Source: Candidatus Parcubacteria bacterium
Lineage (GTDB): Bacteria; Patescibacteriota; Minisyncoccia; Phycocordibacterales; UBA918
DNA length: 64,000 bases
Direction of reading: 5' to 3'
Assembly (NCBI GenBank): GCA_021731405.1
Contig: JAKFXN010000001.1
Span: 29,857 to 93,856 of the forward strand
The notes under the pieces were generated by a model that did not search any database, was not told the origin of the DNA, and saw only the letters and a program-made list of their open reading frames with translations. Of the stretch, positions 35,846 to 53,558 are shown piece after piece. Position 1 is the stretch's first letter; each line of letters starts with the position of its first letter. Position numbers and translations under genes: made by a program.

Positions 35846-35849
35846 ATGG

Positions 35850-36917
35850 TTAGCCGCGACGCTTGAACTCAAATGTTCTAAAGAAAAATCGTAAAGTAAA
35901 GAGAATAATAAAGATGCCAAGGAAAATACCCCCTACCACTTTCCAAGGTAAGACCCAGAAGGTAAAGCTAAACTCATCAACAATATCATCGTAGCCACGG
36001 TTAATAAGTGCTGTAGCGGTATAACGACCAAACAACAGCTCTCTGTCCCAACTAATATCGCGAGTGCGAAGTGACTTAGGTAACACAAACCAAGGCTCAA
36101 GCTCTACAAAGCCTACCTCCTCACCAAACAAATTGGTAATACGAACTTCACCATATGGGTTCACATGTACCGATCCGGTATTTTCATACAAAATCCGCAT
36201 ATCGATAGGACCTTTCTCAAACCACCATGAGGGACGCGCGAGTGAAAAATCTTTTGTTTCACCCCCCTTCACTACTTCTCCTGGTACTGTAATAAAAAAT
36301 AAGGTTCCGATGCGAGCTACAATCGGCGAACGAGCCGTGCCAGCGCCGCCGTTGTCACCTTCATCTTTGACGGTAGACACCAAAACACCGCCGTAATATC
36401 CGCCTGGCTCAGCGTCAGCTGGAATACTAATAGTTACAGGCACACGAGCCCGTTCCCCTAGATTAAGGGTAAACGAATTTTCTGGAAAACTAATGTAGTC
36501 TTTGATTGTGTGTGGGCCGCGCTCCTCACCCAAAAACACCATTGCTCGAGAAGCATCATTACTTCCTGCAATATCCTCAACCACCAGTTCAAACCTGCGG
36601 CCGTCACTGATGCGGTTTGAAACTGATATTTCGTAGACAACTGTCTGCCCAGGCTTAACTTCAATTTCTGCTCGACCAGGGCCAACCACAAAGTCCCCCT
36701 GATTCACCGTCCCAGAAAGCTTCTCGAGTTTATACCAAGGTGCAGCAGGTGCGGCCTCCTCAGTAGTTGAAGTGGCTTCTGTCTCTACAGACAAAACACT
36801 CTCGTCTTCTAAGACTTGAGTATTTTCTTGTGCAGATACTGCAAGCACTCCTATTGTGAACACAAAGAGTGTGAAGGCAGTTTTATAAGCTAATGTAATA
36901 ACATTTTGTGTAGTCAT
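35850..36917 (-). CDS. Surface protein with DUF916/DUF3324-like (CscC-like) architecture: signal peptide, beta-sandwich region, C-terminal TM plus a basic tail
   Basis: 355 aa. Central segment ISFPENSFTLNLGERARVPVTISIPADAEPGGYYGGVLVS and C-terminal KVVGGIFLGIFIILFTLRFFFRTFEFKRRG. Confidence 0.5.
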   Translation of the reverse strand: MTTQNVITLAYKTAFTLFVFTIGVLAVSAQENTQVLEDESVLSVETEATSTTEEAAPAAPWYKLEKLSGTVNQGDFVVGPGRAEIEVKPGQTVVYEISVSNRISDGRRFELVVEDIAGSNDASRAMVFLGEERGPHTIKDYISFPENSFTLNLGERARVPVTISIPADAEPGGYYGGVLVSTVKDEGDNGGAGTARSPIVARIGTLFFITVPGEVVKGGETKDFSLARPSWWFEKGPIDMRILYENTGSVHVNPYGEVRITNLFGEEVGFVELEPWFVLPKSLRTRDISWDRELLFGRYTATALINRGYDDIVDEFSFTFWVLPWKVVGGIFLGIFIILFTLRFFFRTFEFKRRG

Positions 36918-36938
36918 AGGTATGAGACTACACTACCG

Positions 36939-37658
36939 CTATTGTGGAGCTACCGTCAAGGTTGCGGTTGCAGTGTAGGTGTCGACAACGAGACCTGGAT
37001 TTGGATTATTGGGTACATGAACACGGAAATGAAGGGTTGAAGTAGCACCAGTTACCGCATCTGTATCTCGGTCAATGATTTGGAAGGTGGTCGTCGCTGG
37101 TGTCATCCAACATCGATCAACAGTGTATCCCCCACCAGCATTGCAAATTGTACCGTTATTAAGGAAAGATTGATCGAGGTCAGAGCTATCAGCTGCACTC
37201 ATAGTATAAGCAAAAACAGCGGCTGTACTGGCAGTTGAGAAGAGGAATGATGGCTCAAATGGATTAGTAGTACTACCGGTAGTACTTGCTGGGTAATCGC
37301 GGATAGCGCTACTACCAGTAATCTCTCCTTCCATTGTTTGGAGGGTGCCGTTATCGAAAAAGGCAATGTCCATAGTGTAGCCTGTTGGACTGTTGGTTTG
37401 TACCACTACTGTAGTAGAGCCGTTTGCTGTACCTCCTGTAATACCGTTTAGAGAACCAGAGAGCGTTGTATTATTAGCATCAACAATGAACGATGTTTCA
37501 CCAACAATTTCTTGTGAGATAGTGAATGGACCACTAGTATCCTGTGCCCTACCGACACGAGGCTCCGCAAAGAAATATAAAGCAAAGAGTACTGCCACAA
37601 TAAGGACGGCGGCAATAAATGCTTGCGTGAGTGAAGTTAAATAAAATTTTGTGTTCAT
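36939..37658 (-). CDS. Small secreted protein, paralog of 35078..35845 (WxL-like without Trp)
   Basis: Shared motifs ITGGTANGSTTVVVQTNSPTGY and TSTLHFRVHV...TYTATATLTVAPQ. Confidence 0.5.
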   Translation of the reverse strand: MNTKFYLTSLTQAFIAAVLIVAVLFALYFFAEPRVGRAQDTSGPFTISQEIVGETSFIVDANNTTLSGSLNGITGGTANGSTTVVVQTNSPTGYTMDIAFFDNGTLQTMEGEITGSSAIRDYPASTTGSTTNPFEPSFLFSTASTAAVFAYTMSAADSSDLDQSFLNNGTICNAGGGYTVDRCWMTPATTTFQIIDRDTDAVTGATSTLHFRVHVPNNPNPGLVVDTYTATATLTVAPQ

Positions 37659-37792: not shown

Positions 37793-37858
37793 ATGCAGGC
37801 GCTTAGCCATGATTCGACCCCACAGGGAGAATCTGGCTGTAGCGAGCTGCAAAGTAGA
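37793..37858 (+). repeat. Copy 1 of a duplicated ~65-nt element (core ATGCAGGCGCTTAGCCATGATTCGACCCCACAGGGAGA + ..GCTGCAAAG.AGAA)
   Basis: The 38-nt core is identical to 37985-38022. Lies in the intergenic region downstream of the 2040-aa gene. Confidence 0.7.
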
Positions 37859-37984: not shown

Positions 37985-38051
37985 ATGCAGGCGCTTAGCC
38001 ATGATTCGACCCCACAGGGAGAAAATGATGTATGTGGGCTGCAAAGCAGAA
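37985..38051 (+). repeat. Copy 2 of the duplicated ~65-nt element
   Basis: The core is 38/38 identical to copy 1 and the tail is partly conserved. Confidence 0.7.
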
Positions 38052-38079
38052 ACAAGGAGGCTATAGCCTCCTTGTTTTT
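38051..38079 (+). terminator. Plus-strand intrinsic terminator (AACAAGGAGGCTATAGCCTCCTTGTTTTT)
   Basis: 11-bp perfect stem with the T-run only on the plus side, immediately after repeat copy 2. This implies a short plus-strand transcript. Confidence 0.6.
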
Positions 38080-38108
38080 GGCTAATTTTTCACTTACAAT
38101 TCTAACCT

Positions 38109-41100
38109 TTAAATACCTCCACCGCCGCCAGAGCTACCGCCGCCTGCTTGGTGATACACCCTGACCTCAAGAGCATCTAGACGAATGGTATTGGAAGCTG
38201 GTTGCGCCGATACTCGAAGTCGGAAATTAGCTCCGCTAAACTGAGCTGCTGTCCAAGACCGTCCCCAAAGATCACTCGCACCACCCACAAGGTAGACTAC
38301 GTCAGAACCTGCCATAGTTGGAGTAGCTTTAGCAGTAGTGTATGAGTTACCACTATCCCAAGAGAGTGAGACATCAATTGTTCCAGCTGCCGTACTACCA
38401 GAAGCATCGAGCTTCACCGCAATACCTTGAATAGTATTTCCGTCAGGAACATTGAAGTTAAAGCCATTGTATGACTGACGAAGATTGGTTGAAGCGGCAG
38501 TGGCATAGGTACCATCAGACAAGAGGGCGTTTTCTCCATTAGTCCACTCATTATGACTGTCTCCAGTCGCGTTTGGACGAGCGAAGTCTGGGTCAGCAGC
38601 AATATTTTCTCCGTCTTCTTCCTCGCCAGCGCCCACTCCTCCACCAGTCTCACCTCCCTCAACAACACCTGCTCCTGCTGGTGCAGGATCTCCAATACGG
38701 GCAACATTACCTCCTCCACCTCCGCTACTATTCCTAAAATGTTGGGAAGTATTCACCGTCGTTAAAATGACCGGTGCGTAAACCGAGGTGGCCCCAAGAG
38801 CAGTTAACCCGAGTGCTGGAAGACTGAAGACTACCGAGTCTCCAAGCTGGGTCCCAGTAGTGTCAGCAGTGACCAGGTAATTGACTGACGTAGAGGCAAC
38901 AAAGTTTTGACTGAAGGTCACTGCACCATGTTGTCCATTGAAAGTCAGAATTCCGTCTCCATCAAGAAGGAGGTCTCCTCCATCCAAAACTCCATCGCTA
39001 TCATTGTCACGATAGAGATTGAAGTCGGAAAGATTGCTACTATCAAGACCTTGTACCCCACTAAGAGAGACCACCAGGTCAGTCACCGTTATCACTTCAC
39101 TCTGTCCGACCAGATTGAAGGCAAAGAGCGGAACATCATCTTTGTTTTGAGCACTAAACTCATTTTCTACTTGTCCCGCTGCATGATTTGCAATCGTAAC
39201 ACTGCCAGTAATACGGATTGTTTGTGTATCAAGTGCTGCTGGTTCACCGGCTGTATTACCGTCTGTATGAAGCTCAAAAGCGCTCGTAGTGGTAGAGACA
39301 GCGGCAAAAGATCCGGCCGTTATTCCGTTTACAATAAGCGTATCTGAGGCAGCGAAGTTTTCTGTCACGGTAAGCACCAGAGTTGCTCCGGCTTCTTCAT
39401 AAGATGCTGTAGTTGAAACCTTCCCCGCTGCCGTTCCGCCAAAGGTAAGATTGGTCGTACCGGTATTGAAACGGAAGTTTGAAGTAGTGGTCGCAATACT
39501 GATGCGAATATCATTTGCTGTAGTTATAGACGGACTAACACTCTCGGCAATAACCACTGCTCCGAGTGTGGTTGTGGCCTGCCCAACATAGAAGTGATAC
39601 GGGGCGGCAGAATAAAATTCTATTGCTTCTGCTGGCGTAAACGGCCAATTCACATTGTTGCCACTATCAAGACATCCTATATCACAAACCACAGTAGATA
39701 CATTAACGTTGTTTGAATCTTTTACATCTATGTTTGCTAAAGTTGTAGTAGCTGGATTTACATACCAATATTGACCATTTGTGCTTGAACGTAACAAATG
39801 CCTTTCACTTGAACTCGTTCCGGTAAAATTCCATTCTCCTTCAATAGTGGTAAGGGTACCTGCTCCGAAAGTGGTGGTGGCAGTTACTGTCGCATTCTTT
39901 GTCAGGTCAAAAAATGTCGTTGTTCCATTAAGGGCATGTACAGCACCAAGCAGGATAACTTCGCCCCCATTTGCGTCAAAAGCACCGTTATTAGTAAAGT
40001 CTCCGTTTGTGACCGAAAGCGCGCTTGAGGGTGCTGTAACACTCTTTCCCGCAGCCACTGTGAAACTTGTCGTTGAAGCAGTCGCTGTCAAAGTAACTCC
40101 GCCACCTCGACGAAGCACTGCGTCATCATCACCAACATACAAAGTTCCTCTACTGGTATCTATAGTCATCGCCCCAGTAAAGGTGGTGTCGCTTATAGTC
40201 TGGACCAAAGCCCAGTCAGCAGCAGAGTCACAGGCTGTAGATGTCTCACAACGAAACAAAATTTGTCCAGAACCAAAGCCACCAGCGTACAAAAAACCAT
40301 GACCTGAATCAAATTGGAGTGCGGTTATACCACCTAAAGTATCTCCCACATCCGTATCAAGTCCAGTAATGGTAGTAAAATCACCTGAAGCATTACAATC
40401 ACTGGAGAGTGGGCAGCGATAGATAATATCTGAAGATCCACCCCCGCCAGCGTACAAAACTTGATTGGTTGTATCAATTTCTATTGGAGTAAGATAGTCT
40501 ATTCCAGCATTATTGATCACAAATGAGAAGTCGCCATTTGCGTCACAGCTTGAGGATAGGACGCAGCGATAGATAGCACCAGCCCCACCATACCCGACAG
40601 TCACATACATCACATCGTTTACCTCATCAATTACAACATCACCCGAGTATCCAGAAATGGCAAAGCTTGAGAAATCACCTTGGGCATTACAGTCACTGGA
40701 AAGTGGGCAGCGGTAAAAGACGTTGTAATCACCACCGTATAAAACATTATTTTGTGTATCTATACCGAGGGCATAAAAACCATTTCCGTCTGCGTCATAC
40801 ACTTCACTAAAGTCACCCGAAGCATTACAGTCTGAAGACAAGACACAGCGATAAAGAGCACCTGAAGCAGGACTTCCAACACCAACATACAGAGCACCGT
40901 TTACTTCATCTACTACTATTGAGTAGACAATCTGATGTGTCGTATCATACGCCACTGCAAAGTCTCCACTGGCGTCACAGTTTGTGGTGAGGATACAGCG
41001 ATATAAGATTCCGTTGTCTCCCGAACCCGCATACAAGACGTCATTCGTTTCATCAATTGCAAAGACTCGGAACCATACCTGTCCACTTGCGTAAGCAGTA

Positions 41101-44100
41101 GTAAATGTCTCAGTCCCTACTCCAGAAACTTCAAGGTTTGCAAAAGCTGAAGTCCCAGTCATTGTCCCAGAAGCTACTCCTCCCAACGATGTTAAGAATA
41201 CCGTCCCGTTATTGGCATCAAAAGTTCCGCTATTTACATAATTCCCATTTACGATTAATTCCGCTGGTGCCTCGACAGTACCCTGCGTAATGGTTAAATT
41301 ATTCACTTCGGTGCTGGTTCCGAGGAGTAAGCCCGACCCGCCAACAGTAAGATGATTAAGGGCATTTGCCCCAACTAAGTCTCCCGAAAATTCTGGAGAA
41401 AGTTGGAAAGACATAATCTCACAACCAATAGCTGAGCCAGTGACAGATGAACAAGCGGTAAGACTTCCTTCTTTACCGAGGTAGAGATAATTACCACCAA
41501 CACTTAATGCCCCCATTGCAACCACTCCCGTTGCACCGGTAGGAGAACCGTTTGAGTCACGACCCGCGACATAGATAGGGTTTGTAGAAGAAGCGAGGTT
41601 ATAGACTTGCAGTTCACAACCAACGGCTGAATCTGGAATTTGGGAACAGGTCGTAGCATTATCTTCTTTACCAAGAAAGAGATGCTCATTTTTTATCACG
41701 ACTGAATATACTAACCCGGTAAACGTACCAACAGAACCACCGACGTCACGACCGGCACGATAAATAGGGTTCGTACTTGAAGAAATATCGTACACCTGAA
41801 GTTCGCAGTTATATGCTGCGCCTGCAACTTGAGAACAGGCAGAAGAACCTCCAGCGTTGGCAATATATAAATAATTGCCTGACTTGGCCATGCTTAAAAA
41901 TACATTGCCACTACTTCCTCCAGCATCTCCCTCAGCGTCACGACCGGCACGATAAATAGGGTTTGTACTTGAAGAAATATCGTACACCTGAAGCTCGCAA
42001 CCCGCCGCTGAACCTGGTGTCGGAGAACAAGCTGCAGTGTCACCGCCCGTACTGGCATACAGATAATCCCCATTAACAACTAAACTATAGACACTATTTA
42101 CACCCGAACCTGTTGATGACCCAGTACTATCACGTCCCGCCACATAGACCATATTTGTACTTGAAGAGATATCAAACACCATCAGTTCACAGCCGTCTCC
42201 CGCACCTGACGTTTGCCCGCACGAAGCACTGTTGAGTTCCTTCCCTGCATACAAATAATTACCTGACGCCGCTAAACTTAAGAAAAATAGCTGTGAGTTA
42301 CCATTGAGTGCACCATCATGATCTATTGAGGTAAGGAAGACAGGGTTTGTCGGATCAGTAATATCAAAAGACATCAGTTCACAACCCTGAGCGTTGGTCC
42401 CACTTTGGGTACAAGCGGTATTTACCCCTCCCTTACCAACAAACAAAATGTTGTCTTTAATGGTAAATGAAGAAATAAACTCCGCAAAGTTACCGTCCGC
42501 GGATCCGTCCACATCTCGCCCCGCGACGTAAATCATGTTGGTTGGATCAGAAACATCATACACTTGAATCTCACAGCCGATCGCCGAACCAGGAGTTTGT
42601 GAACAAGGAGTAGCCTCCCCAGCAGTACCAATAAATAAATAGTTGCCGTAGGTGATTGATTTATTGATAGTAACTGCGTCGGTACCTGTTGCTGATCCGT
42701 CCATATCCACCGCTCCAGAAAAACCAACAAGTGCTGTATCTGTATATATCTGTCCACCATTATTATCGAAGGTGCCTCCGTTGTGAAAGCTTCCAACAGT
42801 TAAATTTGTTGGCGCAACAAGACTTGAGCCAGCGCTGATGTAAAGATTTGAAGTTGAAGCAGAAGTAGTAGCAATGCTGTACGATGAAGAATTATCAAAA
42901 TCTAATGTAGAAAAGCTACTAGTTGCTGTCAAAATCCCATCAACCACTCCCGACCCAGTCATGTATACCACACCACCATTAGCATTAAATATTCCTCTAT
43001 TGATGAAATCCCCAGAAGCTTGTATAGATGGTGCTGAAACAAATTCTCCCCTGCTAATCAAAAAATCTCCATTAGAAACAAATTCTTCTCCGTTTAAGAA
43101 ATGAAGAATATCCGCATCAGACACAGTGTCGTAAGTAAAGTTAAGCGGATTTATTTGTACCGTAGATGAAGCACCGTACGCAATCACATGCTCATAGTAA
43201 AGCGGTATATTTCGTACCCCTATCCCCGTACTATACCCACTTACGAACGTAGTGGCGTCATTAGCATCACCATCAAGCCATATTACAAAAGGGGTACCGC
43301 TCGTAGCTGAAGAAACGTCTGCATTTGAAAATTCCCAAGCGCCACTACTATTTGTGGTAGTACTAAAAATACTTGGCGTTGAAGTACCGACCCACATCTT
43401 GATAGTTTTTCCCGAACCAGCGGTCGTTACGCCTGCGTCAGTGTACAATGTACCGGCAAAGTACGGAGACGGGGTTTCGCGGATAGCTAAGTGAATAGCC
43501 GCTGCGTCGTCAGTTGTGGCGTAGGTATAACCAACCGATCGTGCGCCTTGGCCAGCGGTAGTTTCCCGACCGAGCATACTAGCCTGCGTAGCAGCGAGCA
43601 CAATACTCTGCAGCGCAGTTGTGTTTGCGCCAGCAGTTAGGGCTGTGTTTCTACCAGTATAGGCTCCTACATACCGCATACTATTAGTACCCAAAGAACC
43701 ATCGTCTACTGACTGTTCACTGTACGCTAGGTTGTTTTGGAGTAATACATATCCGGTTGTTTCTGTATTCCCTGCTGCTTGTACAGAAGCTGCATTTGCG
43801 TACATTACCGTTGCATTATTGGTACGTGTTACCTCAATAGTCTGACTCCCCGTTGGGACACTTGACCCAAGAAAGAATGCGGTCACTCGAGCAGGTTCAG
43901 TGGTAGTGTCGATAGCCTCTGACACTTGCGTCATTGTTACTCCACCATAAGTTACTGAAGTAATGTAGTCTGCATTTGCTATTGTAGTCACAAACACGAG
44001 CACACCTTCAGGTGAGCCGGTATCTCCATGTGTCCAACTAAATGAAGTGGAGGAAGCGTTACCGCTTGTACCAGTATGACTTTCTGAAGAAGTACTGTGG

Positions 44101-44231
44101 GACACCGCCGCTAAAGCACTTGGTGCAAAGAGAACAAAATACGCAAAAGTAAAAAATAGAACCAGAAGAAAACCGAGGCTTTTTTTAGTTGCTTGGTTAG
44201 CGGTTTTGGTTGTGGTGATTGTTGTGTACAT
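38109..44231 (-). CDS. Giant (2040 aa) secreted repeat protein: 8 LVIVD-like beta-propeller repeats (C.L.VYD.S.STNP.Y.AGRD), 8 Cys-pair repeats (YRC.LSSDC.A.GDF), Ig-like regions and a Gly-rich C-terminus
   Basis: Signal peptide LGFLLVLFFTFAYFVLFAPSALA. The periodic repeats were read directly from the translation. Confidence 0.7.
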   Translation of the reverse strand: MYTTITTTKTANQATKKSLGFLLVLFFTFAYFVLFAPSALAAVSHSTSSESHTGTSGNASSTSFSWTHGDTGSPEGVLVFVTTIANADYITSVTYGGVTMTQVSEAIDTTTEPARVTAFFLGSSVPTGSQTIEVTRTNNATVMYANAASVQAAGNTETTGYVLLQNNLAYSEQSVDDGSLGTNSMRYVGAYTGRNTALTAGANTTALQSIVLAATQASMLGRETTAGQGARSVGYTYATTDDAAAIHLAIRETPSPYFAGTLYTDAGVTTAGSGKTIKMWVGTSTPSIFSTTTNSSGAWEFSNADVSSATSGTPFVIWLDGDANDATTFVSGYSTGIGVRNIPLYYEHVIAYGASSTVQINPLNFTYDTVSDADILHFLNGEEFVSNGDFLISRGEFVSAPSIQASGDFINRGIFNANGGVVYMTGSGVVDGILTATSSFSTLDFDNSSSYSIATTSASTSNLYISAGSSLVAPTNLTVGSFHNGGTFDNNGGQIYTDTALVGFSGAVDMDGSATGTDAVTINKSITYGNYLFIGTAGEATPCSQTPGSAIGCEIQVYDVSDPTNMIYVAGRDVDGSADGNFAEFISSFTIKDNILFVGKGGVNTACTQSGTNAQGCELMSFDITDPTNPVFLTSIDHDGALNGNSQLFFLSLAASGNYLYAGKELNSASCGQTSGAGDGCELMVFDISSSTNMVYVAGRDSTGSSTGSGVNSVYSLVVNGDYLYASTGGDTAACSPTPGSAAGCELQVYDISSSTNPIYRAGRDAEGDAGGSSGNVFLSMAKSGNYLYIANAGGSSACSQVAGAAYNCELQVYDISSSTNPIYRAGRDVGGSVGTFTGLVYSVVIKNEHLFLGKEDNATTCSQIPDSAVGCELQVYNLASSTNPIYVAGRDSNGSPTGATGVVAMGALSVGGNYLYLGKEGSLTACSSVTGSAIGCEIMSFQLSPEFSGDLVGANALNHLTVGGSGLLLGTSTEVNNLTITQGTVEAPAELIVNGNYVNSGTFDANNGTVFLTSLGGVASGTMTGTSAFANLEVSGVGTETFTTAYASGQVWFRVFAIDETNDVLYAGSGDNGILYRCILTTNCDASGDFAVAYDTTHQIVYSIVVDEVNGALYVGVGSPASGALYRCVLSSDCNASGDFSEVYDADGNGFYALGIDTQNNVLYGGDYNVFYRCPLSSDCNAQGDFSSFAISGYSGDVVIDEVNDVMYVTVGYGGAGAIYRCVLSSSCDANGDFSFVINNAGIDYLTPIEIDTTNQVLYAGGGGSSDIIYRCPLSSDCNASGDFTTITGLDTDVGDTLGGITALQFDSGHGFLYAGGFGSGQILFRCETSTACDSAADWALVQTISDTTFTGAMTIDTSRGTLYVGDDDAVLRRGGGVTLTATASTTSFTVAAGKSVTAPSSALSVTNGDFTNNGAFDANGGEVILLGAVHALNGTTTFFDLTKNATVTATTTFGAGTLTTIEGEWNFTGTSSSERHLLRSSTNGQYWYVNPATTTLANIDVKDSNNVNVSTVVCDIGCLDSGNNVNWPFTPAEAIEFYSAAPYHFYVGQATTTLGAVVIAESVSPSITTANDIRISIATTTSNFRFNTGTTNLTFGGTAAGKVSTTASYEEAGATLVLTVTENFAASDTLIVNGITAGSFAAVSTTTSAFELHTDGNTAGEPAALDTQTIRITGSVTIANHAAGQVENEFSAQNKDDVPLFAFNLVGQSEVITVTDLVVSLSGVQGLDSSNLSDFNLYRDNDSDGVLDGGDLLLDGDGILTFNGQHGAVTFSQNFVASTSVNYLVTADTTGTQLGDSVVFSLPALGLTALGATSVYAPVILTTVNTSQHFRNSSGGGGGNVARIGDPAPAGAGVVEGGETGGGVGAGEEEDGENIAADPDFARPNATGDSHNEWTNGENALLSDGTYATAASTNLRQSYNGFNFNVPDGNTIQGIAVKLDASGSTAAGTIDVSLSWDSGNSYTTAKATPTMAGSDVVYLVGGASDLWGRSWTAAQFSGANFRLRVSAQPASNTIRLDALEVRVYHQAGGGSSGGGGGI

Positions 44232-44252: not shown

Positions 44253-47200
44253 CTACACTACTGGTTCTTCACTTGGTTCTTCGACCGGGGCTTCAGGTTC
44301 TTCTTCAGGAGTCGGCTCTTCGGTCTCTTCTTCTGCAGGTTCTTCTGTTTCCTCCTCTTCGGTTTCTATAGTAGTTTCTTCTACAACTTCTTCATTCATC
44401 TCTTCGTCAATTGGTTCTTCCAGTGGTGGCGGTGTCTCCTCTTCTGCAACCTCCCCGTCGTTTGTTTCTTCTCCACTTGGTTCTTCCTCTACTTCTTCGT
44501 CTGGTGCAGGTTCTTCTCCGCTTGGCTCCTCTGCTGGTTCTTGAGGTACTACTTGCTCATCAAGCAGTCGCCGCAAGTCTTCCGCGTTGAGACATACTCC
44601 ATCCACACAAATCTCTTCCTTCACTTCCACTCGGTCTGCTTTCAAGGTAAGGATTGAGAGAACACCATCCACGAAGTTATTTGCTAAAGTAACAAGGCGA
44701 TTCCAAACTGTTTCTTCGCCTACCTCCCCTTCAATATCAAGCGCACCTGCTACCAGTGCGGCAATCATCGTCTTTCCTTCTTCGTCCAAGAATCGTTCGT
44801 TGAGTGAAACAAACATTACAATCTGTCCAACACGTACTTCCTCTCCACTATCCAAAGTCACTCGCTCGCTGCGAATATTTTTGAGCGCTGCCAATGCCGC
44901 CGCTTGCGCTTCAGCTTCAGCGAGCATTTGTGCTTCTTCTGCTTGTCCATCGGTTGAAGTAGCGATAAGTGGTACACATGGCGCTTCACCCGAAGCGCTT
45001 CCAGCGCCGTAGTAACAACCGTCATTAATACGCGGGTCGTTATCTTTATTGATAGGAGTTACTACCGGGTCAACCAAGTCATCTCCGAATTGATTAATAT
45101 ATGTATCTGAGTACGCTCGTGTCGCTTCAAAATCTTCAAGCGCAATACCAACCACCATTCCAGTTGAAGAAGCCTTCATTGCCACACCTGGTACTGAAGA
45201 AAGCATAAGCTCATCACCTGCTTTGATTTCTCCGTTTTCGTTTGAAAGTCGGACTGGCACACGTCCAGCTAAAGCTACTCCGTATCCTTCTTCACCAGCA
45301 CTGAGTGAACTGTCGTCAAATCCGAGGAGGAGACCCGGCTTTGTGGTCACAACTCCGATAACTTTTTCTTCTGTCTCTTCGCTCGCTTTACCAATTGAAA
45401 GTCCGTTCTTGAGGTACACAATTTCACCCGTCTTAAGAGACTCATTTGAGAAGTACATTTCCGCTAAGTCGGAATTACCCGTGTGATATGAAACTGCTGA
45501 GATACGCCCAGTGGTTGAAGCATTGCAACTACCGTCGTTATCAACACAGATACCACCGTACCCAATCTGGAGTCCAGCGTTGTTATTAGTTGTCCCGTCT
45601 CCGATAGTCGTCATACCGCGCGCACCAACAGTGAAGAGTGAGGTGCCAGCATTTTGGAGATCAATGTACTTTGAAGCAGTTGTTGAAGAGAATGAACCAC
45701 CTCCGTTTCCAAAGTTCATAAGTAGCCCCGTACCCACATAGGTCGAAGTGTCTTGGAAGAGCTTGAGGAGTGCAGCAGTGGTGATAGTCGAAGAGTAGCC
45801 ACGAAGTGCATTGCCTTGAGTAGTACCTTGCGTCTCTCCGTACACACCAGCTGGCTCAAAGGTACCGCCAGCATCACCCGCTGTGGTACCACGTACACCA
45901 AACGTTCGCGCAAAGCCTGAGAGCGCAGTGTTTTCTCCACGAGTGTTGTTTCCTCTATCGGTCTGTACTTCGAGTCCACGGACCGTGTTACCAAATGTGG
46001 TACTGTCTTCAAGTCTAAAGATGTTGCCTACGATAGTAGTTGTAGCGGTGGTGGTAGCGTAGAGATAAGTGTTGTTACCAAACTGCACTGCACTTGGCGT
46101 ACTGTTGGTGAAAGTAAAATATTGCTCAAGCCCTGCAGTACCCGCAGTATTAAAGTTGCGTCGTTCAATTGCTAAACGGGCACCTGGAGTAGTGGTACCG
46201 ATACCCACGTTTCCTGAAGATAGTGTGGAATCAATACCATCAACTCCGGTACCAAAGATAAGGTTGCCGATATTGAGAGTATTGTCTGCTGAAGCAGATA
46301 CGGCATCTATGTCATACCCGATGATGATGTTGTTGTTTCCGGTGGTGAGGTTGTCCGCCGTAAATGCTCCCAAGGCAATGTTACCTTCACCAGTCTCACT
46401 ATTTTCCAAAGCACTTACTCCAAGCGCTGTATTTCGCCGACCAGTTGTATTAGAAGCTAAAACACCTCTACCTATTGCGGTATTATCAGCACCAGTTGTA
46501 TTTGCAATCATTGTGAAGAAACCCAGCGCTGTGTTACTACCACCAGTTGTGGTGTTACTCATTGAGCTTTGCCCTACCGCGGTATTAGTACCACCAGTTG
46601 TTAAGGAACTGAGAGCGTACGAACCAATACCAACGTTATCAAGTCCTATGAACTGGTTGGTAGAAGAACCCAGTGTAAAGTTACCAGCCTGACGACCCAT
46701 AAAGATATTATCGCCATAAGTGTCGTCTAACGCGTAAGTATGAATAAAGCGATCACTTCCTACATTAAGTACCCCCGCAGCACCCCCACTTGTGGTTTCT
46801 GGAATATCTATATTCCCAGTCACACTCACATTACCAGCGACCGTGAGCTTTGAGCCCGGAGTTGAAGTACCAATACCCACATTACCTGAAGATAAGGTTG
46901 TCCCTGTACCATCAAGCCCAGTACCAAAGATAAGGTTGCCGATGTTGAGTACATTGTCAGCTGTGGCTGTGATGTTGTCGATATCGTAGCCGATGATGAT
47001 GTTGTTGTTTCCGGTGGTGAGGTTATCAGCAGCTTGGTAGCCGAGGAGAATGTTGTTGTCTGCACCAGTAGCCATGTTATATCCTGCACGGCGTCCAATC
47101 ACGGTAAAGTTACTTGCTTGATAATTAACACCATTGCCAAACGCCGCATTAGTTCCCAGAGCAACTGAATTAGAAGACGTGGCGGCATGGAAAGCAGAAT

Positions 47201-50200
47201 AAGCACCGATAAAAGAATTATCATTACCAGCACGAAGCTGGTCTCCTGCTGCTGCTCCAAGGAAAGAGTTAGCATAACCAGAGCTCACGCTACTTCCTGC
47301 TGCATATCCTAGAGCAGTGTTATGAGAACCGTCTGTTTCACCAGCCAATGCAAAGGTACCGATACCGATGTTGAAGCCACCTGTGGTTATTTGCCGACCA
47401 GCTAAGGCACCCATCAAGATATTGCTATCTGAAGCGCCCGTAAGACTTTCTCCAGCGCGGTAACCAAAAAGATAGGCACCTATGGTAGATGAAGCACTGA
47501 TGACCCGTTCACCACCAAACGCAATACCAGTAGTGCTACCCAGTGCAAGATCGGTGCCATTAAACGTAAAGTCTGCACTATCAACAAGTGCGGTTGCTCC
47601 TGAGTTTGTATACATAATGCGGTTAGCCGTGTATGAAGAAGGGGTATCAGTAAGTGCGAGGAACGTAGTTGCGCCACCACCAATACCAAGCGTACTTGTA
47701 GCTACCCAACGAGTTGAGGTGCCGGTGGTTTGGAGAATCATACCGAGAGTACCCGACGCATTTGCTCCGTCGCGGAAGGCGCCGGTGAGACGAATGTCTC
47801 CAGCGATTGAAAGCTTGCTTGCAGGAGTTGAAGTACCTATTCCAACGTTCCCTGACGCAAGCGTTGTCCCTGTACCATCAAGACCAGTACCAAAGATAAG
47901 GTTGCCGATGTTGAGTACATTGTCAGCTGTGGCTGTGATGTTGTCGATATCGTAGCCGATGATGATGTTGTTGTTTCCGGTGGTGAGATTGTCGGCTGCG
48001 CGGTAGCCAAGGAGTACATTATTATTAGCACCTGTTTGTGCGTTGTATCCGGCCTGGAAACCGATTGCGGTGTTGTTAGTAGCTTGAAATGGTGTGCCTA
48101 CATTTACAGCCGCAGAACCTCCGCGCAACGCTCCGCTACCAATAGCGATAGTAGCTGATGCTTGGAGCAAACCAGCTGCCTCAAGTCCTATAAACTCATT
48201 GTAGTTACCACTGTTTCTATACCCTGCCCCTGCACCGAAGAAGTTACTAAACGATCCTGTAGTTGAAGCACCTGCCGCAAAACCAATTATGTTGTTGAAA
48301 CTACCTGAACTGAAAGCTCCAGCGTTGCTACCAAACATATTATTGTAATCACCAGTACTTTCCCCTCCAGCGTAAAATCCAATAGCGTTGTTTTCATCAC
48401 CGGTGTTATTTTGACCAGTGTAATACCCAACAGCAACAAGACGACTTCCGGTGTTATTTTCGCCTGCAGAAAAACCGAGAGCATTGAGGTTTGCGCCAGT
48501 ATTGTCTTGTCCAGCAGCCGTACCTACCAAAGCACTGTATCCTCCAGTGTTATTTTGACCAGCGTTATGACCAATAATTGTTGAGCCGTCAGACTGATTA
48601 TAGGTACCTCCACCCACCAGCACATTATCGTTACCGCTATTTGAAAACCCTACACTCTGACCAATCATTATGTTATTTTCTCCGTAATTGTTATAACCTG
48701 CTTGGTAGCCGATAAATATATTTTCACTGGAAGTACTATTAAGACCTGCTTCCCGTCCAATCTTTATTACATCTATAGAGGATGAAGCGGTAAACATTCG
48801 CGTACCGCCAAATGAGATGCCGTCATCATTACCCAACCCAAGGTTAGTTCCATTAAACGTGAGATCAGCTGAATCAATAAGCGCAGTTGCACCGGAGTTT
48901 GTGTACATGATGCGATTAGCGGTAAATGACGACGGTGTGTCAGTGAGTGCCAAGAAAGTTGAAACGCCACCAATACCAAGCGTACTTGTAGCTACCCAAC
49001 GAGTTGAGGTGCCCGTGGTTTGAAGAACCATCCCAAGAGTTCCAGACGCGTTTGCGCCGTCACGGAACGCGCCGGTGAGGCGCATACCCCCGACCACTGT
49101 AAGTTCAGAAGACGGAGTGGTAGTACCGATACCTAAACGTCCACTCACATCAAATACACTAAGTGGTGTCCCTGCACTGTTACGTAATTCTAAAAGGCTG
49201 GCTGTTTGAGTAGAGGTCGCCTGTGCCAAGATAGTAGGAATAGTAGTACTTGAAGAACGCACATCAAAAACTCCCTGTACATCAACTGTGTTAAGACCAA
49301 GTAGTCCTGGTTCACCAAGGATAAGGCGTGTCTGACCACCAAATGTAAAGGCCGAGTAGTAATCCGTTAGATTAATTGTCCCGACATTTCCGTTATTATT
49401 AGAAGAGAGCGCTAGGCCGGTAGTGGTGTAGTTATATCCAATTGTCCCAACATTGTTTCCGTTACCAGAATCAAGAGTGATCAAGTCACCGAGCGGACCG
49501 CGAATATAGAGAGGTGTCGAAGGATCATCGATACCATACCCCATACCAACATATCCATTATGAAGGACAGTCATAAGAGAATCCCCAGTTGATGACGCCA
49601 CGACAAACGGATTACTACTACCTGTCCCTACAACAGTAAGTCTATTATTTGGCGTTGAAGTACCAATACCTACATTTCCACTCGCTAGAGTAGTACCTGT
49701 ACCATCAAGACCAGTACCGAAGATGAGGTTACCGATGTTGAGACGGTTGTCGGCAGTAGCAGTTACGTTATCAATATCGTAACCAATAATGATGTTGTTA
49801 TTTCCGGTCGTGAGGTTGTCGGCTGCACGATATCCAAGGAGGATATTGTTGTCTGAGCCAGCCTGTGCAGCATAGCCTGCCCGGTAGCCAAGAGCGACGT
49901 TGTTGGTTGCATTAAAAGGTGAGGTTCCCGAACCTCCTCGATAGGCTTCCCCTCCGATGATTACAGAAGAAGTGGCTCTGAGGTTATATCCAGCTTCATA
50001 ACCAAGCATTTGGTTATATACGCCCTGATTAAAATATCCAGCCTGATAACCAATAAGTTCGTTATATGAACCTGTATTGCTATACCCTGCATAATTACCG
50101 ATAAGAGAGTTAAACGTACCAGTATTATTAGTTCCCGCGTGGCCACCTAGTCTTAGAACGCCATTGCTTGGATCAGCGCTAATCGCTCGAGTACCACCAA

Positions 50201-53200
50201 AAGCAATTCCCGTAGTAGCATTAAATCCTAAATTAGTGCCATCAAACGTAAAGTTAGATGCATCTGTGAGCGCTGTCCCACCACTGTTGGTGAAGATAAC
50301 TCTATTAGCAGTGAGTGAGTTTTGGGTATCAGAAAGACCAGTAAAAGTATTGTCTCCAAAACCAAGGGTTGAGGTAGCAACCCAGCGAGTTGAGGTGCCG
50401 GTGGTTTGGAGAATCATGCCGAGTGTTCCAGAGGCGTTTGCTCCGTCACGGAAGGCGCCAGTAATATATGTGTCTCCTACTATAGTAAGCCTGCTACTTG
50501 GAGTAGTCGTACCAATACCAACGTTTCCATTACTATCAACATTGATGCGACGATTACCTTGGCCGTCAGCGATGATGATGTTGTTTGAAAGTGATGAAGA
50601 AAGGCCAGAAACATTTGCCCCAAGAATGGTGTTGTAATCACCAGTGACAATACCCAGGCCAGTTTCATTACCGATAATAGTGTTATTCTCTCCATCTACA
50701 ATGTTGCTTCCAGTGGTGCGTCCTATACCAATGTTTCCTCCTCCTGTAGCCGCATTAAGAGCATAGTATCCGATACCCACATTACCCCAACTGGTTGAGT
50801 TAGAACCAACTGCCAATCCTCCGATAGCAACATTGTAGTTACCAGTAGTATTTTGATCTAAAGCATTGTATCCAACAGCGGTGTTATGCTCGCCAAGAGT
50901 ATTGTTCACCAGCGCAATAGAACCAACAGCGGTATTGAACTGTCCCGCAGTATTGTCTGCCAGCGCGGCATTTCCGACTGCAGTGTTATTAGAAGATGAA
51001 GTACTAACCATAAGAGCATTAGTACCAAGTGCTGTATTAGAATTACCAGTTATGTTTTGCTGTAAGGCATACCGACCCATGGCGATATTGCTGTAGCCAG
51101 TGGTTGTAAACTGCATCGCCCCTTGCCCGACAACAGTGTTATCAGAACCGGTAGTCAAAGCACCAAGTGCAAACCTACCAACACCCAAGTTATCAATTCC
51201 GAGGAACTGATTGGTACTCGAGCCAAGGGTAAAGTTACCAGCCTGATACCCCATGAACTGGTTAGTTCCATATGTATTATCTAGAATATAACCATGAATG
51301 AAGCGTTCGCCATCAATATTAAGTACTCCAGCCGCACCGCCTGCAGTAGTACTGAGAAGATTAACGTTATTTGTGACACTAATTGTGCCCGCCACACTGA
51401 GCCTAGAAGCTGGTGTTGAGGTACCAATACCAAAATTAGTGCCATCAAAGATTAAACTAGCAGAGTCTGTAAGTGACGTACCACCACTATTAGTGAAGAT
51501 AACTCTATTAGCAGTGAGTGAGTTTTGAGTATCAGAGAGACCGGTAAAAGTATTGTCTCCAAAACCAAGCGTTGAAGTCGCTACCCAGCGTGTTGAGGTG
51601 CCGGTGGTTTGGAGAATCATGCCGAGTGTTCCTGAGGCATTTGCTCCGTCACGGAAGGCACCGGTGAGACGAAGAGTGCTCAAAAACGCATCTCCAGACA
51701 CTGAGAGATTTGTAGTAGAGGCGTTTCCTAGAGTTGAAGCCCCACTCACAGAAAGTGCTCCAGAGGTCAAGGTACCGCCGTTTAAGTTAAGTGGCGTTGC
51801 TCCGCCAGTAGTATATAGACCATAGTCTATGAGTGCTTGACGTAAATCTGCTGTTGCTCCCGCCTTTACTATTGGAGTAGCCCCAAAGAAACCGAGTTGT
51901 GAAGCGCTGAGATTATCTTTAATTGAAATAACTGTACCTAGTCCTGACAAAAGGTTTATTGTTCCGTTCTGACCACTGCCGTCTCCTAATCCTGCAGATA
52001 ACTCAAGATTTCCTCCTTCTCCATCAAAACCAGCTTCAGCTGACCCACCAAAAAATCCGAAGTTTCCTCCTCTGGTGCGACCGGTACCTCCAAAAGCTTG
52101 CATCTCTCCACCAATTCCACCTCCAAAGAGCGCATTACCACCAGATAAATAGACTGAGTTTGCGGAACCAGACGTTACCGCAGCAGCTTGAATTTCTAAG
52201 TTTGTGCCAGGAAGAGACTCTATATATCTTGTGTAGACAGTGCCTGTAGATGTGACGTTTCCACCAACATACGCATTCCCTCCCACTGTAAGTCGTGAGC
52301 CAGGAGTAGTACTTCCAATACCGAGATTAGTCCCATCAAAAACAAAGCTGGCAGAATCAGTAAGTGACGTACCGCCACTATTGGTGAAGATAACTCTATT
52401 AGCGGTAAATGAAGACTGGGTATCACTGAGTCCCAGATACGTGCCGTTACCGAGACCAAGAGTTGAAGTCGCTACCCAACTGGTACCGATACCTGTACTA
52501 CTCAGAATCTGCCCAACTGTACCAGACGCATTTAGGGTGTCACGGAAAGAGCCGGTGAGGCGAAGGTCGCCAACAACTGAAAGCGTACTGCCCGGAGTTG
52601 TTGTGCCGATACCAACTCTGCCGGCGCTAGTGACTGTAATTCGGTTAGTACCAGCAGTAGCAAAACCGAGACCTGTTCCTTCCATGTACATACCAGTACT
52701 CGTATCTCCTGTCCAAGAGTACTTTGGTGCTGCGGCAGTGCCAGCTCCGACCATCTGGAATTGTCCTACCCCTCCATTGAGAGCCCAACGCATTCTTTCT
52801 GCACCACCAAGAGAAAGACTAAACTGGGAGGCAGCACTTCTGTACAGACCTACGTCCGAGCCCAATGCGATACCTCCCGTTGCAGAAGTACTGTCGGCGA
52901 GTGTGAGGGTTGAGTATGGAGTAGTTGTCCCAATACCAATGTTTCCGCTACTGAGCACTGTAAAGACTTCTGTCACCCCACTAAAAAGTGCGAGTACTTT
53001 TCCGACACCATTTTGAATAATTGAAAGAATTGGTGAAGACGACGTAGCCTGCATGGTGTCCGCTTCATCAGAACGAAGGAACGAGGTGGTCGCTATACCA
53101 GCTAGTGTCTGAGCATTTTCTGCTTCAAACGCAGCGGGTACGGCACCAAGGATTTTTCGTGGACTCATTTCTCCGTCCCATACTGGTGTAGTAGTACTAA

Positions 53201-53558
53201 TGCCGCCAATCTCAACTCCAAGATATAGCGTCTGATTGAAGTTGACGTTTGTCAGAGTAGAGACGTCTCCGAGCATAACTGAAAAGAGACCGTTTTGAAC
53301 TTGGACACGGTTTCCGCTCGTGCGCACCTCACTCCATACCGCAGTAGAAGTAGCGCCAACGTCCGTTGGTACAAGCCAAAAATTCATGTTGTAAAGACCG
53401 TCTGGCACCGCCACACCAGAAGCGTTCGTAAGCTTTCCTTGGTAATTTATTTCAGGATTAAATTGCGCAAACGAAGTAGTTGGGACAAGGGCAAGGAGCA
53501 ACAACCCTACGAGCGTAGGAAGAATATATCGGTTTAGGTTGTTACTAAAAAAGATCAT
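44253..53558 (-). CDS. Giant (3101 aa) secreted protein with phage tail-fibre / YadA-head-like beta-roll repeats (NTA[VI]G..AL..NTTG), repeated GIGTTTP..L.V.G motifs, a putative C-terminal intramolecular-chaperone (peptidase S74-like) region and a polyacidic tail
   Basis: N-terminal signal peptide, hundreds of ~14-aa Asn/Gly/Thr-rich repeats, four ~60-aa near-identical modules (ADNLTTGNNNIIIGYDIDNITATADNVLNIGNLIFGTGLDGTGTTLASGNVGIGTSTP) and a C-terminal E/P-rich tail. Confidence 0.7.
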   Translation of the reverse strand: MIFFSNNLNRYILPTLVGLLLLALVPTTSFAQFNPEINYQGKLTNASGVAVPDGLYNMNFWLVPTDVGATSTAVWSEVRTSGNRVQVQNGLFSVMLGDVSTLTNVNFNQTLYLGVEIGGISTTTPVWDGEMSPRKILGAVPAAFEAENAQTLAGIATTSFLRSDEADTMQATSSSPILSIIQNGVGKVLALFSGVTEVFTVLSSGNIGIGTTTPYSTLTLADSTSATGGIALGSDVGLYRSAASQFSLSLGGAERMRWALNGGVGQFQMVGAGTAAAPKYSWTGDTSTGMYMEGTGLGFATAGTNRITVTSAGRVGIGTTTPGSTLSVVGDLRLTGSFRDTLNASGTVGQILSSTGIGTSWVATSTLGLGNGTYLGLSDTQSSFTANRVIFTNSGGTSLTDSASFVFDGTNLGIGSTTPGSRLTVGGNAYVGGNVTSTGTVYTRYIESLPGTNLEIQAAAVTSGSANSVYLSGGNALFGGGIGGEMQAFGGTGRTRGGNFGFFGGSAEAGFDGEGGNLELSAGLGDGSGQNGTINLLSGLGTVISIKDNLSASQLGFFGATPIVKAGATADLRQALIDYGLYTTGGATPLNLNGGTLTSGALSVSGASTLGNASTTNLSVSGDAFLSTLRLTGAFRDGANASGTLGMILQTTGTSTRWVATSTLGFGDNTFTGLSDTQNSLTANRVIFTNSGGTSLTDSASLIFDGTNFGIGTSTPASRLSVAGTISVTNNVNLLSTTAGGAAGVLNIDGERFIHGYILDNTYGTNQFMGYQAGNFTLGSSTNQFLGIDNLGVGRFALGALTTGSDNTVVGQGAMQFTTTGYSNIAMGRYALQQNITGNSNTALGTNALMVSTSSSNNTAVGNAALADNTAGQFNTAVGSIALVNNTLGEHNTAVGYNALDQNTTGNYNVAIGGLAVGSNSTSWGNVGIGYYALNAATGGGNIGIGRTTGSNIVDGENNTIIGNETGLGIVTGDYNTILGANVSGLSSSLSNNIIIADGQGNRRINVDSNGNVGIGTTTPSSRLTIVGDTYITGAFRDGANASGTLGMILQTTGTSTRWVATSTLGFGDNTFTGLSDTQNSLTANRVIFTNSGGTALTDASNFTFDGTNLGFNATTGIAFGGTRAISADPSNGVLRLGGHAGTNNTGTFNSLIGNYAGYSNTGSYNELIGYQAGYFNQGVYNQMLGYEAGYNLRATSSVIIGGEAYRGGSGTSPFNATNNVALGYRAGYAAQAGSDNNILLGYRAADNLTTGNNNIIIGYDIDNVTATADNRLNIGNLIFGTGLDGTGTTLASGNVGIGTSTPNNRLTVVGTGSSNPFVVASSTGDSLMTVLHNGYVGMGYGIDDPSTPLYIRGPLGDLITLDSGNGNNVGTIGYNYTTTGLALSSNNNGNVGTINLTDYYSAFTFGGQTRLILGEPGLLGLNTVDVQGVFDVRSSSTTIPTILAQATSTQTASLLELRNSAGTPLSVFDVSGRLGIGTTTPSSELTVVGGMRLTGAFRDGANASGTLGMVLQTTGTSTRWVATSTLGIGGVSTFLALTDTPSSFTANRIMYTNSGATALIDSADLTFNGTNLGLGNDDGISFGGTRMFTASSSIDVIKIGREAGLNSTSSENIFIGYQAGYNNYGENNIMIGQSVGFSNSGNDNVLVGGGTYNQSDGSTIIGHNAGQNNTGGYSALVGTAAGQDNTGANLNALGFSAGENNTGSRLVAVGYYTGQNNTGDENNAIGFYAGGESTGDYNNMFGSNAGAFSSGSFNNIIGFAAGASTTGSFSNFFGAGAGYRNSGNYNEFIGLEAAGLLQASATIAIGSGALRGGSAAVNVGTPFQATNNTAIGFQAGYNAQTGANNNVLLGYRAADNLTTGNNNIIIGYDIDNITATADNVLNIGNLIFGTGLDGTGTTLASGNVGIGTSTPASKLSIAGDIRLTGAFRDGANASGTLGMILQTTGTSTRWVATSTLGIGGGATTFLALTDTPSSYTANRIMYTNSGATALVDSADFTFNGTDLALGSTTGIAFGGERVISASSTIGAYLFGYRAGESLTGASDSNILMGALAGRQITTGGFNIGIGTFALAGETDGSHNTALGYAAGSSVSSGYANSFLGAAAGDQLRAGNDNSFIGAYSAFHAATSSNSVALGTNAAFGNGVNYQASNFTVIGRRAGYNMATGADNNILLGYQAADNLTTGNNNIIIGYDIDNITATADNVLNIGNLIFGTGLDGTGTTLSSGNVGIGTSTPGSKLTVAGNVSVTGNIDIPETTSGGAAGVLNVGSDRFIHTYALDDTYGDNIFMGRQAGNFTLGSSTNQFIGLDNVGIGSYALSSLTTGGTNTAVGQSSMSNTTTGGSNTALGFFTMIANTTGADNTAIGRGVLASNTTGRRNTALGVSALENSETGEGNIALGAFTADNLTTGNNNIIIGYDIDAVSASADNTLNIGNLIFGTGVDGIDSTLSSGNVGIGTTTPGARLAIERRNFNTAGTAGLEQYFTFTNSTPSAVQFGNNTYLYATTTATTTIVGNIFRLEDSTTFGNTVRGLEVQTDRGNNTRGENTALSGFARTFGVRGTTAGDAGGTFEPAGVYGETQGTTQGNALRGYSSTITTAALLKLFQDTSTYVGTGLLMNFGNGGGSFSSTTASKYIDLQNAGTSLFTVGARGMTTIGDGTTNNNAGLQIGYGGICVDNDGSCNASTTGRISAVSYHTGNSDLAEMYFSNESLKTGEIVYLKNGLSIGKASEETEEKVIGVVTTKPGLLLGFDDSSLSAGEEGYGVALAGRVPVRLSNENGEIKAGDELMLSSVPGVAMKASSTGMVVGIALEDFEATRAYSDTYINQFGDDLVDPVVTPINKDNDPRINDGCYYGAGSASGEAPCVPLIATSTDGQAEEAQMLAEAEAQAAALAALKNIRSERVTLDSGEEVRVGQIVMFVSLNERFLDEEGKTMIAALVAGALDIEGEVGEETVWNRLVTLANNFVDGVLSILTLKADRVEVKEEICVDGVCLNAEDLRRLLDEQVVPQEPAEEPSGEEPAPDEEVEEEPSGEETNDGEVAEEETPPPLEEPIDEEMNEEVVEETTIETEEEETEEPAEEETEEPTPEEEPEAPVEEPSEEPVV
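46896..47012. repeat. Intragenic direct DNA repeat, copy A (~115-130 nt, nearly identical to copy B 973 bp downstream)
   Basis: GTACCAAAGATAAGGTTGCCGATGTTGAGTACATTGTCAGCTGTGGCTGTGATGTTGTCGATATCGTAGCCGATGATGATGTTGTTGTTTCCGGTGGTGAG. Confidence 0.8.
47869..47988. repeat. Intragenic direct DNA repeat, copy B
   Basis: Same ~105-nt string as copy A with at most 1-2 mismatches. More diverged copies lie near 46230-46350 and 49690-49830. Confidence 0.8.

Follow-up and report, generated by a model that had tools for sequence, protein, structure and literature searches.

Giant modular adhesins such as the SiiE, MpIBP and Embp-type proteins are very large, secreted and repetitive, and they combine an extender with terminal or embedded ligand-binding modules. 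They have long arrays of immunoglobulin-like (Ig-like) or bacterial Ig-like (BIg) domains and use a type I secretion system (T1SS) or LPXTG anchoring. The LVIVD repeat (PF08309) was described as one that occurs in cell-surface proteins of archaea and bacteria (Adindla 2007, as cited in PMC3192720). It has no known ligand, and as of 2021 it was still among the repeat families without an experimental structure. The cultivated Patescibacteria all live attached to other microbes, and their host-recognising molecules are largely unknown (PMC11623550). The cultivated Saccharibacterium TM7x has a minor pilin, PilX2, with a heptabladed propeller, and deletion of PilX2 halves host binding (PMC11623550). 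In this study, I analysed a gene for a 2040-amino-acid (aa) protein in a 64,000-nucleotide stretch of DNA from a Candidatus Parcubacteria bacterium (GenBank assembly GCA_021731405.1, contig JAKFXN010000001.1, positions 29,857 to 93,856; this whole stretch is called the window). The protein has two arrays of tandem repeats, called repeat 1 and repeat 2 below, both of which are predicted to fold into beta-propellers. I favour the reading, at a probability of roughly 0.6, that the protein is a modular Patescibacteria surface adhesin with exchangeable ligand-binding propeller heads.

The gene is an intact single open reading frame (ORF) at 38109..44231 on the minus strand, with 2040 codons for amino acids and a stop codon. 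The product is identical to one NCBI-derived protein (P0006). An earlier note on this DNA, made from the sequence alone, had described a secreted protein of 2040 aa. The computed ORF agrees with this, and so does the leader as inspected by eye in the translation; it is Sec-like, with a basic stretch, a 24-residue hydrophobic core and the ending PSALA/AV. The protein is laid out as follows, from the N-terminus to the C-terminus.

44109..44231, minus strand: aa 1-41, Sec-type signal or signal-anchor (..KKSLGFLLVLFFTFAYFVLFAPSALA/AV..; translation by inspection).
43467..44108, minus strand: aa 42-255, N-terminal globular domain (50-61 % identity to the N-termini of giant proteins from outside Patescibacteria).
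42741..43466, minus strand: aa 256-497, conserved stalk (GTLYTDAGVTTAGSGKTIK..GTSTPS..) with the first copy of a spacer motif at its end (aa 458-500); common to 15 relatives, 54-60 % identity to the closest.
41388..42740, minus strand: aa 498-948, predicted LVIVD-type seven-bladed beta-propeller with 64-aa blades and one C-x9-C pair in each (PF08309, a hidden Markov model (HMM) of the unit, and AlphaFold2).
41115..41387, minus strand: aa 949-1039, inter-propeller spacer module with the second copy of the spacer motif (38-60 % identity, 13 relatives).
40104..41114, minus strand: aa 1040-1376, unnamed 'YRC / C-x5-C' predicted beta-propeller with six canonical blades and one degenerate blade.
39597..40103, minus strand: aa 1377-1545, third copy of the spacer motif and a conserved C-x3-C module (..DVKDSNNVNVSTVVCDIGCLDSGNNVNW..), called C1 below (17 relatives, 62-65 % identity to the closest).
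38742..39596, minus strand: aa 1546-1830, conserved beta-rich C-terminal region, possibly Ig-like (73-75 % identity to the closest relatives).
38580..38741, minus strand: aa 1831-1884, Gly/Glu-rich linker (from the sequence).
38112..38579, minus strand: aa 1885-2040, conserved C-terminal domain with a poly-Gly tail (..YHQAGGGSSGGGGGI; 84-86 % identity to the closest relatives).

Are the two arrays truly repetitive, and are they different from each other? The mean pairwise local BLOSUM62 score is 143 among the repeat-1 units and 94 among the repeat-2 units, while shuffled units give 25 and 23. The mean pairwise identity of the units is 42 % and 40 %, respectively. Thus, the two tandem repeat families whose motifs were quoted in the earlier note lie far above chance (94-143 against about 24). 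A shared origin of repeat 1 and repeat 2 was rejected, as hhalign gave a probability of only 15 %. Tandem Repeats Finder detected no tandem repeat at the DNA level. Therefore, these are old protein repeats, and a recent DNA duplication or an assembly artefact was rejected. The copy numbers and the periods had to be revised. Instead of eight copies of about 55 aa, repeat 1 has seven 'C-E-[LI]' motifs (at aa 553, 617, 681, 745, 809, 872, and 937) with a period of 63-65 aa; the unit HMM found six full units and a C-terminal half unit, together with a weak match to the other half in the N-terminal flank. Instead of eight copies of about 45 aa, repeat 2 has six '[YF]RC' units (aa 1077-1326) with a period of 46-55 aa and a degenerate seventh unit lacking cysteines (aa 1349-1376).

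All 28 cysteine residues of the protein are found in short-range pairs: seven C-x9-C pairs in repeat 1, six C-x5-C pairs in repeat 2, and one C-x3-C pair at aa 1516/1520. Of the units that passed the HMM filter, all 448 of repeat 2 and all 110 of repeat 1 have both cysteines, and the cysteine columns are invariant in the alignments as well. The earlier note had given a conserved cysteine pair for repeat 2 only; it was found there, and repeat 1 has its own invariant C-x9-C pair.

The full-length protein has no sequence match in Pfam, NCBIfam or the PDB, and LVIVD surfaced only by a domain-wise scan. When aa 500-960 were scanned alone, PF08309 gave 34.9 bits (E-value 9.7e-9), which exceeds its gathering cut-off of 20.2 bits. 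Relatives of the protein have precomputed PF08309 matches, and one of them is named 'LVIVD repeat protein [Parcubacteria bacterium OLB19]'. The designation 'LVIVD-like' was therefore appropriate. Like LVIVD proteins, repeat 1 has the core strand-turn motif '..L.V[FY]D[IV]S.P.NP..', and its predicted fold is a beta-propeller, again as part of a protein that would be secreted or displayed on the cell surface. Unlike them, it has a unit of 64 aa, not of about 42 aa; the Pfam model has 42 positions, and the best single stretch of the match spans only 10 of them. Judging from the unit sequences, the additional residues seem to form a loop before the LVIVD strand that the invariant C-x9-C pair closes. 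No PDB sequence is detectably related to repeat 1.

An AlphaFold2 (AF2) model of repeat 1 was built from an alignment of 15 arrays from relatives, in all of which the cysteine columns are invariant. The model (predicted local distance difference test score (pLDDT) of 89.7 and predicted template modelling score (pTM) of 0.91) has 28 strands, which make up seven four-stranded blades, with an N-terminal strand completing the last blade. Among the relatives, 13 of the 16 repeat-1 arrays with six or more units have seven units, and the other three have 6, 6, and 8. A Foldseek search with the model returned generic propellers only, the best of which is the phosphotriesterase 5hrm. Repeat 1 is thus predicted to be an LVIVD-type seven-bladed beta-propeller, of a long-blade variant that would be clasped by cysteines.

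Repeat 2 is a different case. For aa 1040-1400, there was no meaningful Pfam match at E-values of up to 10, no NCBIfam match, and no sequence relative in the PDB. There was no significant match to WD40, YWTD/Ldl_recept_b, NHL, Kelch, RCC1, Lactonase, Reg_prop, DUF5122 or NCBIfam models, and a Pfam scan of ten diverse strong members gave no match in the repeat region that reached the cut-offs. The earlier note was right in not assigning this family to a named one. The consensus of 448 units from 93 proteins is IySL.fDstNgVLYAG.g..GiIYRC.tSTGCDasGDWTt. An exhaustive profile search over 1.84 billion cluster representatives found 487 proteins at an E-value of 1e-3 or better, 183 at 1e-10, and 86 at 1e-30; only the weak tail of this search drifts into Rax2/DUF5122, WD40 or Reg_prop proteins. 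In the genome collection, the repeat is found in Saccharibacteria, Paceibacteria, Microgenomates, Lloydbacteria, Colwellbacteria, Doudnabacteria and other Patescibacteria, and outside Patescibacteria in a few metagenome-assembled genomes (MAGs) of Desulfobacterota and Elusimicrobia.

A word-indexed search with repeat 2 found only five relatives, all of about 550 aa. Four of the five begin with a prepilin-type sequence (GFTLIELLIV..); a pilin head comes next, and then exactly seven units with cysteine pairs. The prepilin motif is present in the relatives P0001, P0003, P0059, and P0080, and the pilin fusions of P0059 and P0080 were confirmed above the Pfam cut-offs (N_methyl and T2SSG). In the 140 repeat-2 proteins that were fetched, the unit HMM found at most seven units per array; 35 arrays have six units and 37 have seven. 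The seven-unit pilin forms are circularly shifted relative to repeat 2 of the 2040-aa protein. The AF2 model of repeat 2, which was built from an alignment of six sequences, has a pLDDT of 75 and a pTM of 0.77. It has six confident four-stranded blades with a short helical turn at the cysteine loop between strands C and D, and its seventh unit is of low confidence. Taking the model together with the seven-unit pilin forms, the best reading of repeat 2 is a predicted seven-bladed ring with one degenerate closing blade. Both arrays are thus predicted beta-propellers, as the earlier note had anticipated, but not 8-fold ones; eight-bladed propellers are excluded by the array counts in relatives and by the models.

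How are these propellers distributed among related proteins? By a whole-protein search and BLAST searches with each segment, I found a family of giant Patescibacteria proteins with a common stalk, spacer motif, C-terminal region and tail. The stalk follows the pattern GTLY.D.G.T.A..GK.IK...GTSTPS.., the C-terminal region is about 650 aa long, and the proteins end in ..YHQAGGGG.GGGG.I. Between the stalk and the C-terminus, the relatives have one to four LVIVD arrays or one to three repeat-2 arrays, and some have other repeat types that look propeller-like by eye. Each propeller lies between segments that have a motif of about 55 aa in common (ASTTNLTI..G..V.AP..L.V.G.F.N.G.F..N.G.V). Compared with the closest relatives P0007 and P0009, the 2040-aa protein is 86 and 84 % identical in the C-terminal domain, 75 and 73 % in the preceding C-terminal region, 62 and 65 % in the C1 module, 54 and 60 % in the stalk, and only about 48 % in the LVIVD propeller. 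In these sequence comparisons, the propellers stand out as the most divergent and most shuffled parts of the family proteins. Another cysteine-containing repeat (..YVYVTG.C..CG..G..A.YT.KY.K..G..VWATTTD..) was seen at aa ~800-1250 of P0017 and at the N-terminus of P0025; this suggests further unnamed, possibly propeller-type cassettes on the same scaffold.

Among the 140 repeat-2 proteins, the 2040-aa protein is the only one that has a full LVIVD array together with repeat 2. The combination is rare but not unique, because Candidatus Paceibacterota AC1.72 (locus L011, JAWKSQ010000001.1, 1838-10337) has a colinear homologue with the order of stalk, LVIVD, repeat 2, repeat 2 and C-terminus. The idea of a unique combination was therefore rejected. 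The homologue is split over at least five reading frames, and it is either a pseudogene or affected by sequencing errors in the assembly.

The N-terminal domain (aa 42-255) gave no significant Pfam or PDB match, the profile searches returning noise only. It resembles domains of unrelated bacteria, including that of a giant protein of Gallionella and that of a protein labelled MshQ by the Joint Genome Institute (JGI), and these homologous domains begin directly behind similar leaders. In contrast, the closest Patescibacteria relatives of the 2040-aa protein, P0007 and P0009, begin with another N-terminal region, as seen by eye. This suggests a possible domain exchange across phyla. The C-terminal domain (aa 1885-2040) also has no PDB or Pfam relative, the profile searches again giving only noise. 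In the relatives P0007-P0025, the last residues of this roughly 150-aa domain are without exception ..Y[HT]QAGGGG.GGGG.I. Giant Patescibacteria proteins may be sorted or anchored by this domain and its poly-Gly tail, which would then make a signal not described before. The propeller-flanking segments, taken for Ig-like in the earlier note, have no significant match to an Ig family in domain-wise Pfam scans; there is only a weak BppU_IgG match (E-value 0.093) in aa 1546-1830.

From these features, I infer secretion, disulfide formation, surface display, an adhesive function and the existence of a ligand. The protein would be exported by the Sec pathway to the surface of a Paceibacterota cell. 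There, the conserved scaffold, consisting of the N-terminal domain, the stalk, the C-terminal region of about 650 aa and the poly-Gly tail, would hold the two propellers in series. The two propellers, each probably seven-bladed and bracketed by the spacer motif of about 55 aa, would fold independently, and their blades may be clasped by the C-x9-C loop in the first propeller and by the C-x5-C loop between the third and fourth strands in the second. The heads would bind a ligand, and the presumably episymbiotic cell would be attached to a host or a substrate in this way. The propellers are most likely the ligand-binding heads because their number and type vary among relatives and because repeat 2 is fused to pilins. 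A role in adhesion or recognition is further supported by the Sec-type leader, the exclusively paired cysteines, the variable cassettes and the epibiotic lifestyle of cultivated Patescibacteria.

The protein shares with the giant modular adhesins its very large size, its apparent secretion, and the combination of an extender with putative ligand-binding modules. It differs from them in its short scaffold, its beta-propeller heads in series, its Sec-type leader and its C-terminal domain, which is uncharacterised and bears a poly-Gly tail. The similarity to propeller-bearing type IV pilus adhesins (TM7x PilX2 and Pseudomonas PilY1) is seen in the repeat-2 relatives, in which a pilin-type N-terminus and a pilin head precede a seven-unit propeller at the C-terminus, whereas the 2040-aa protein lacks the prepilin motif and is four times larger.

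Several observations weigh against a surface adhesin. An LPXTG motif, a C-terminal transmembrane helix and a pilin N-terminus are all absent from the 2040-aa protein. Its C-terminus (..RVYHQAGGGSSGGGGGI) is without a hydrophobic helix, and Pfam and NCBIfam gave no match to sorting domains of the LPXTG, PEP-CTERM or GlyGly-CTERM type; its N-terminus (MYTTITTTK..KKSLGFLLVLFF..ALA/AV) is without the prepilin methylation motif (G/FTLIE..), and there was no N_methyl match. The PilX2 propeller is reported as RCC1-type, and repeat 2 has no Pfam match, RCC1 included, at E-values of up to 10. Thus, the PilX2 precedent is an analogy in architecture and probable role, and not a demonstrated homology. The pilin-propeller genes of the relatives lie among housekeeping genes and not in pilus operons, and a pilus-operon setting was rejected from these gene neighbourhoods. 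Finally, enzymes are among the top structural neighbours: repeat 2 resembles lactonases, and repeat 1 resembles a phosphotriesterase.

The gene is preceded by a large ORF on the same strand and followed by a hairpin.

44253..53558, minus strand: upstream secreted fibre-like repeat protein of 3101 aa (a neighbour, not a homologue).
38047..38080, no strand assigned: hairpin with a 15-bp stem (AAACAAGGAGGC-TATA-GCCTCCTTGTTT), about 30 nucleotides 3′ of the stop codon, a likely terminator.

The upstream ORF stops 21 bp ahead of the start codon of the 2040-aa ORF, which is the gap given in the earlier note. The hairpin is probably the terminator of the gene pair, and a 450-bp spacer comes after it. 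A two-gene transcription unit is plausible from this arrangement, because the gap is only 21 bp and the hairpin is found only after the 2040-aa gene. In the 3101-aa protein, 'GNVGIGTTTP..RLTV.G..RLTGAFRD..ASGT.G..LQTTGTSTRWVATSTLG' units recur, some stretches ('NTA.G..AL..NT.G') resemble a beta-helix, and the tail is rich in Glu and Pro and very acidic. Homology between it and the 2040-aa protein was rejected (best E-value 12). The relative P0007 is also 3101 aa long, and this match in length to the upstream ORF is a coincidence.

The window has genes for GatB, Obg, SecA, MurB, a release factor (RF), L25, GAPDH, RpiB, RPE, a split transketolase, DnaE, ThrRS, GyrB, and PheRS. Its SecA matches one NCBI protein exactly and is 76-81 % identical to named relatives from Candidatus Paceibacterota, Nomurabacteria, and Parcubacteria. 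The window is a piece of a Paceibacterota chromosome (Patescibacteria, also called the candidate phyla radiation (CPR)), not of a phage.

Other surface-protein candidates and a repeat were seen in the window. In the 450-bp spacer, a perfect 39-bp direct repeat (TTCTCCCTGTGGGGTCGAATCATGGCTAAGCGCCTGCAT) occurs in two copies 192 bp apart (37793-37831 and 37985-38023, minus strand); zero copies are expected by chance, and no Rfam family matched. Downstream of the gene, at 33510-37658 on the minus strand, there is a cluster of four secreted or membrane proteins. Two of them, of 239 aa and 280 aa, look like paralogues; both hold ..TGGT.NGST.VVV.T.SP.GY.. and end in ..TYTATATLTVAPQ and ..TYIATTTLTATPL, respectively, and neither has a Pfam match. 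Between them lies a 355-aa protein with a sub-threshold match to a WxL-interacting peptidoglycan-binding domain (PF06030, E-value 0.002), and the cluster then holds a 523-aa fn3 protein with a C-terminal transmembrane helix. The cluster may be a counterpart of the Csc/WxL surface-complex cluster of Firmicutes, which it resembles. Another large, probable surface protein of 1143 aa with a DUF11 domain is encoded at 8528-11959 on the minus strand.

Three other explanations each have some support, yet they agree less well with the modular build, with the pattern of conservation and with the location on a chromosome. The earlier note had called the upstream gene a fibre gene, and its beta-helix-like stretches indeed match PHROG tail-spike families (E-value 1e-40), although the locus is on a bacterial chromosome and the sequence is unrelated to that of the 2040-aa protein. 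Could the pair be a prophage- or phage-derived tail-fibre module encoding receptor-binding proteins? The PHROG matches of the 3101-aa ORF to tail-spike and virion structural families (E-values from 1e-40 to 1e-31) and the distance of only 21 bp between the genes would fit such an origin, but it is very improbable: the 2040-aa protein itself has no PHROG match, the window has only housekeeping and surface-protein genes and no capsid, portal, terminase or integrase gene, the GC content is uniform along the 64 kb, and the homologues of the 2040-aa protein are chromosomal genes of many Patescibacteria MAGs.

The propellers might also be lattice or spacer elements of a structural envelope protein or a surface-layer (S-layer) protein, instead of ligand-binding heads. 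This is unlikely, since their number and type vary strongly among close relatives and they are the least conserved parts, which is unusual for a lattice protein; a terminal binding module would also better explain why the repeat-2 propeller is found on pilin N-termini. The enzymes among the structural neighbours raise the question of whether the protein is a secreted enzyme, with one or both propellers catalytic (lactonase-, cycloisomerase-, phosphotriesterase- or lyase-like) and acting on host-envelope or environmental substrates. I regard this as unlikely, too. The identity to such enzymes is only 7-12 %, with no match at the sequence level. Seven-bladed propellers of the lactonase/YVTN class (PpgL 6igb, 6PGL 6nau, YncE 3vgz, Lp49 3bws, and the Methanosarcina S-layer protein 1l0q) are 8-12 % identical without a sequence-level relationship, and none has a C-x5-C loop in each blade; WD40 and integrin propellers score almost alike, which indicates a similarity of the general fold. 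Since WD40, coatomer and integrin propellers score as well as the candidate enzymes do, the structural match is to the generic fold. Moreover, the conserved cysteine pair, Tyr, Gly and Asp recur in every blade. Therefore, they are expected to be structural repeat positions and not a single active site. A modular surface adhesin thus remains the favoured reading of the 2040-aa protein.

What is new here is repeat 2, an unnamed repeat centred on Patescibacteria that is used both on pilins and on giant proteins; as a whole, the protein is of a familiar kind. As a speculation that goes well beyond the adhesin reading and that I hold only tentatively, the 'YRC / C-x5-C' propeller might be a dedicated host-recognition head of Patescibacteria, a cassette swapped between type IV pilus subunits and giant non-pilus proteins. 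The spacer motif would then mark the cassette boundary, the fast-evolving face of the propeller would set the host range, and the C-terminal poly-Gly domain would be a new surface anchor of the phylum. LVIVD matches can stay hidden if a whole giant protein is scanned, and the repeat-2 profile could become a family model for annotating giant proteins that are now called 'hypothetical'. Much of bacterial diversity belongs to Patescibacteria, and the repeat-2 module on their pilins and giant proteins is a concrete candidate for the heads by which they may recognise their hosts.

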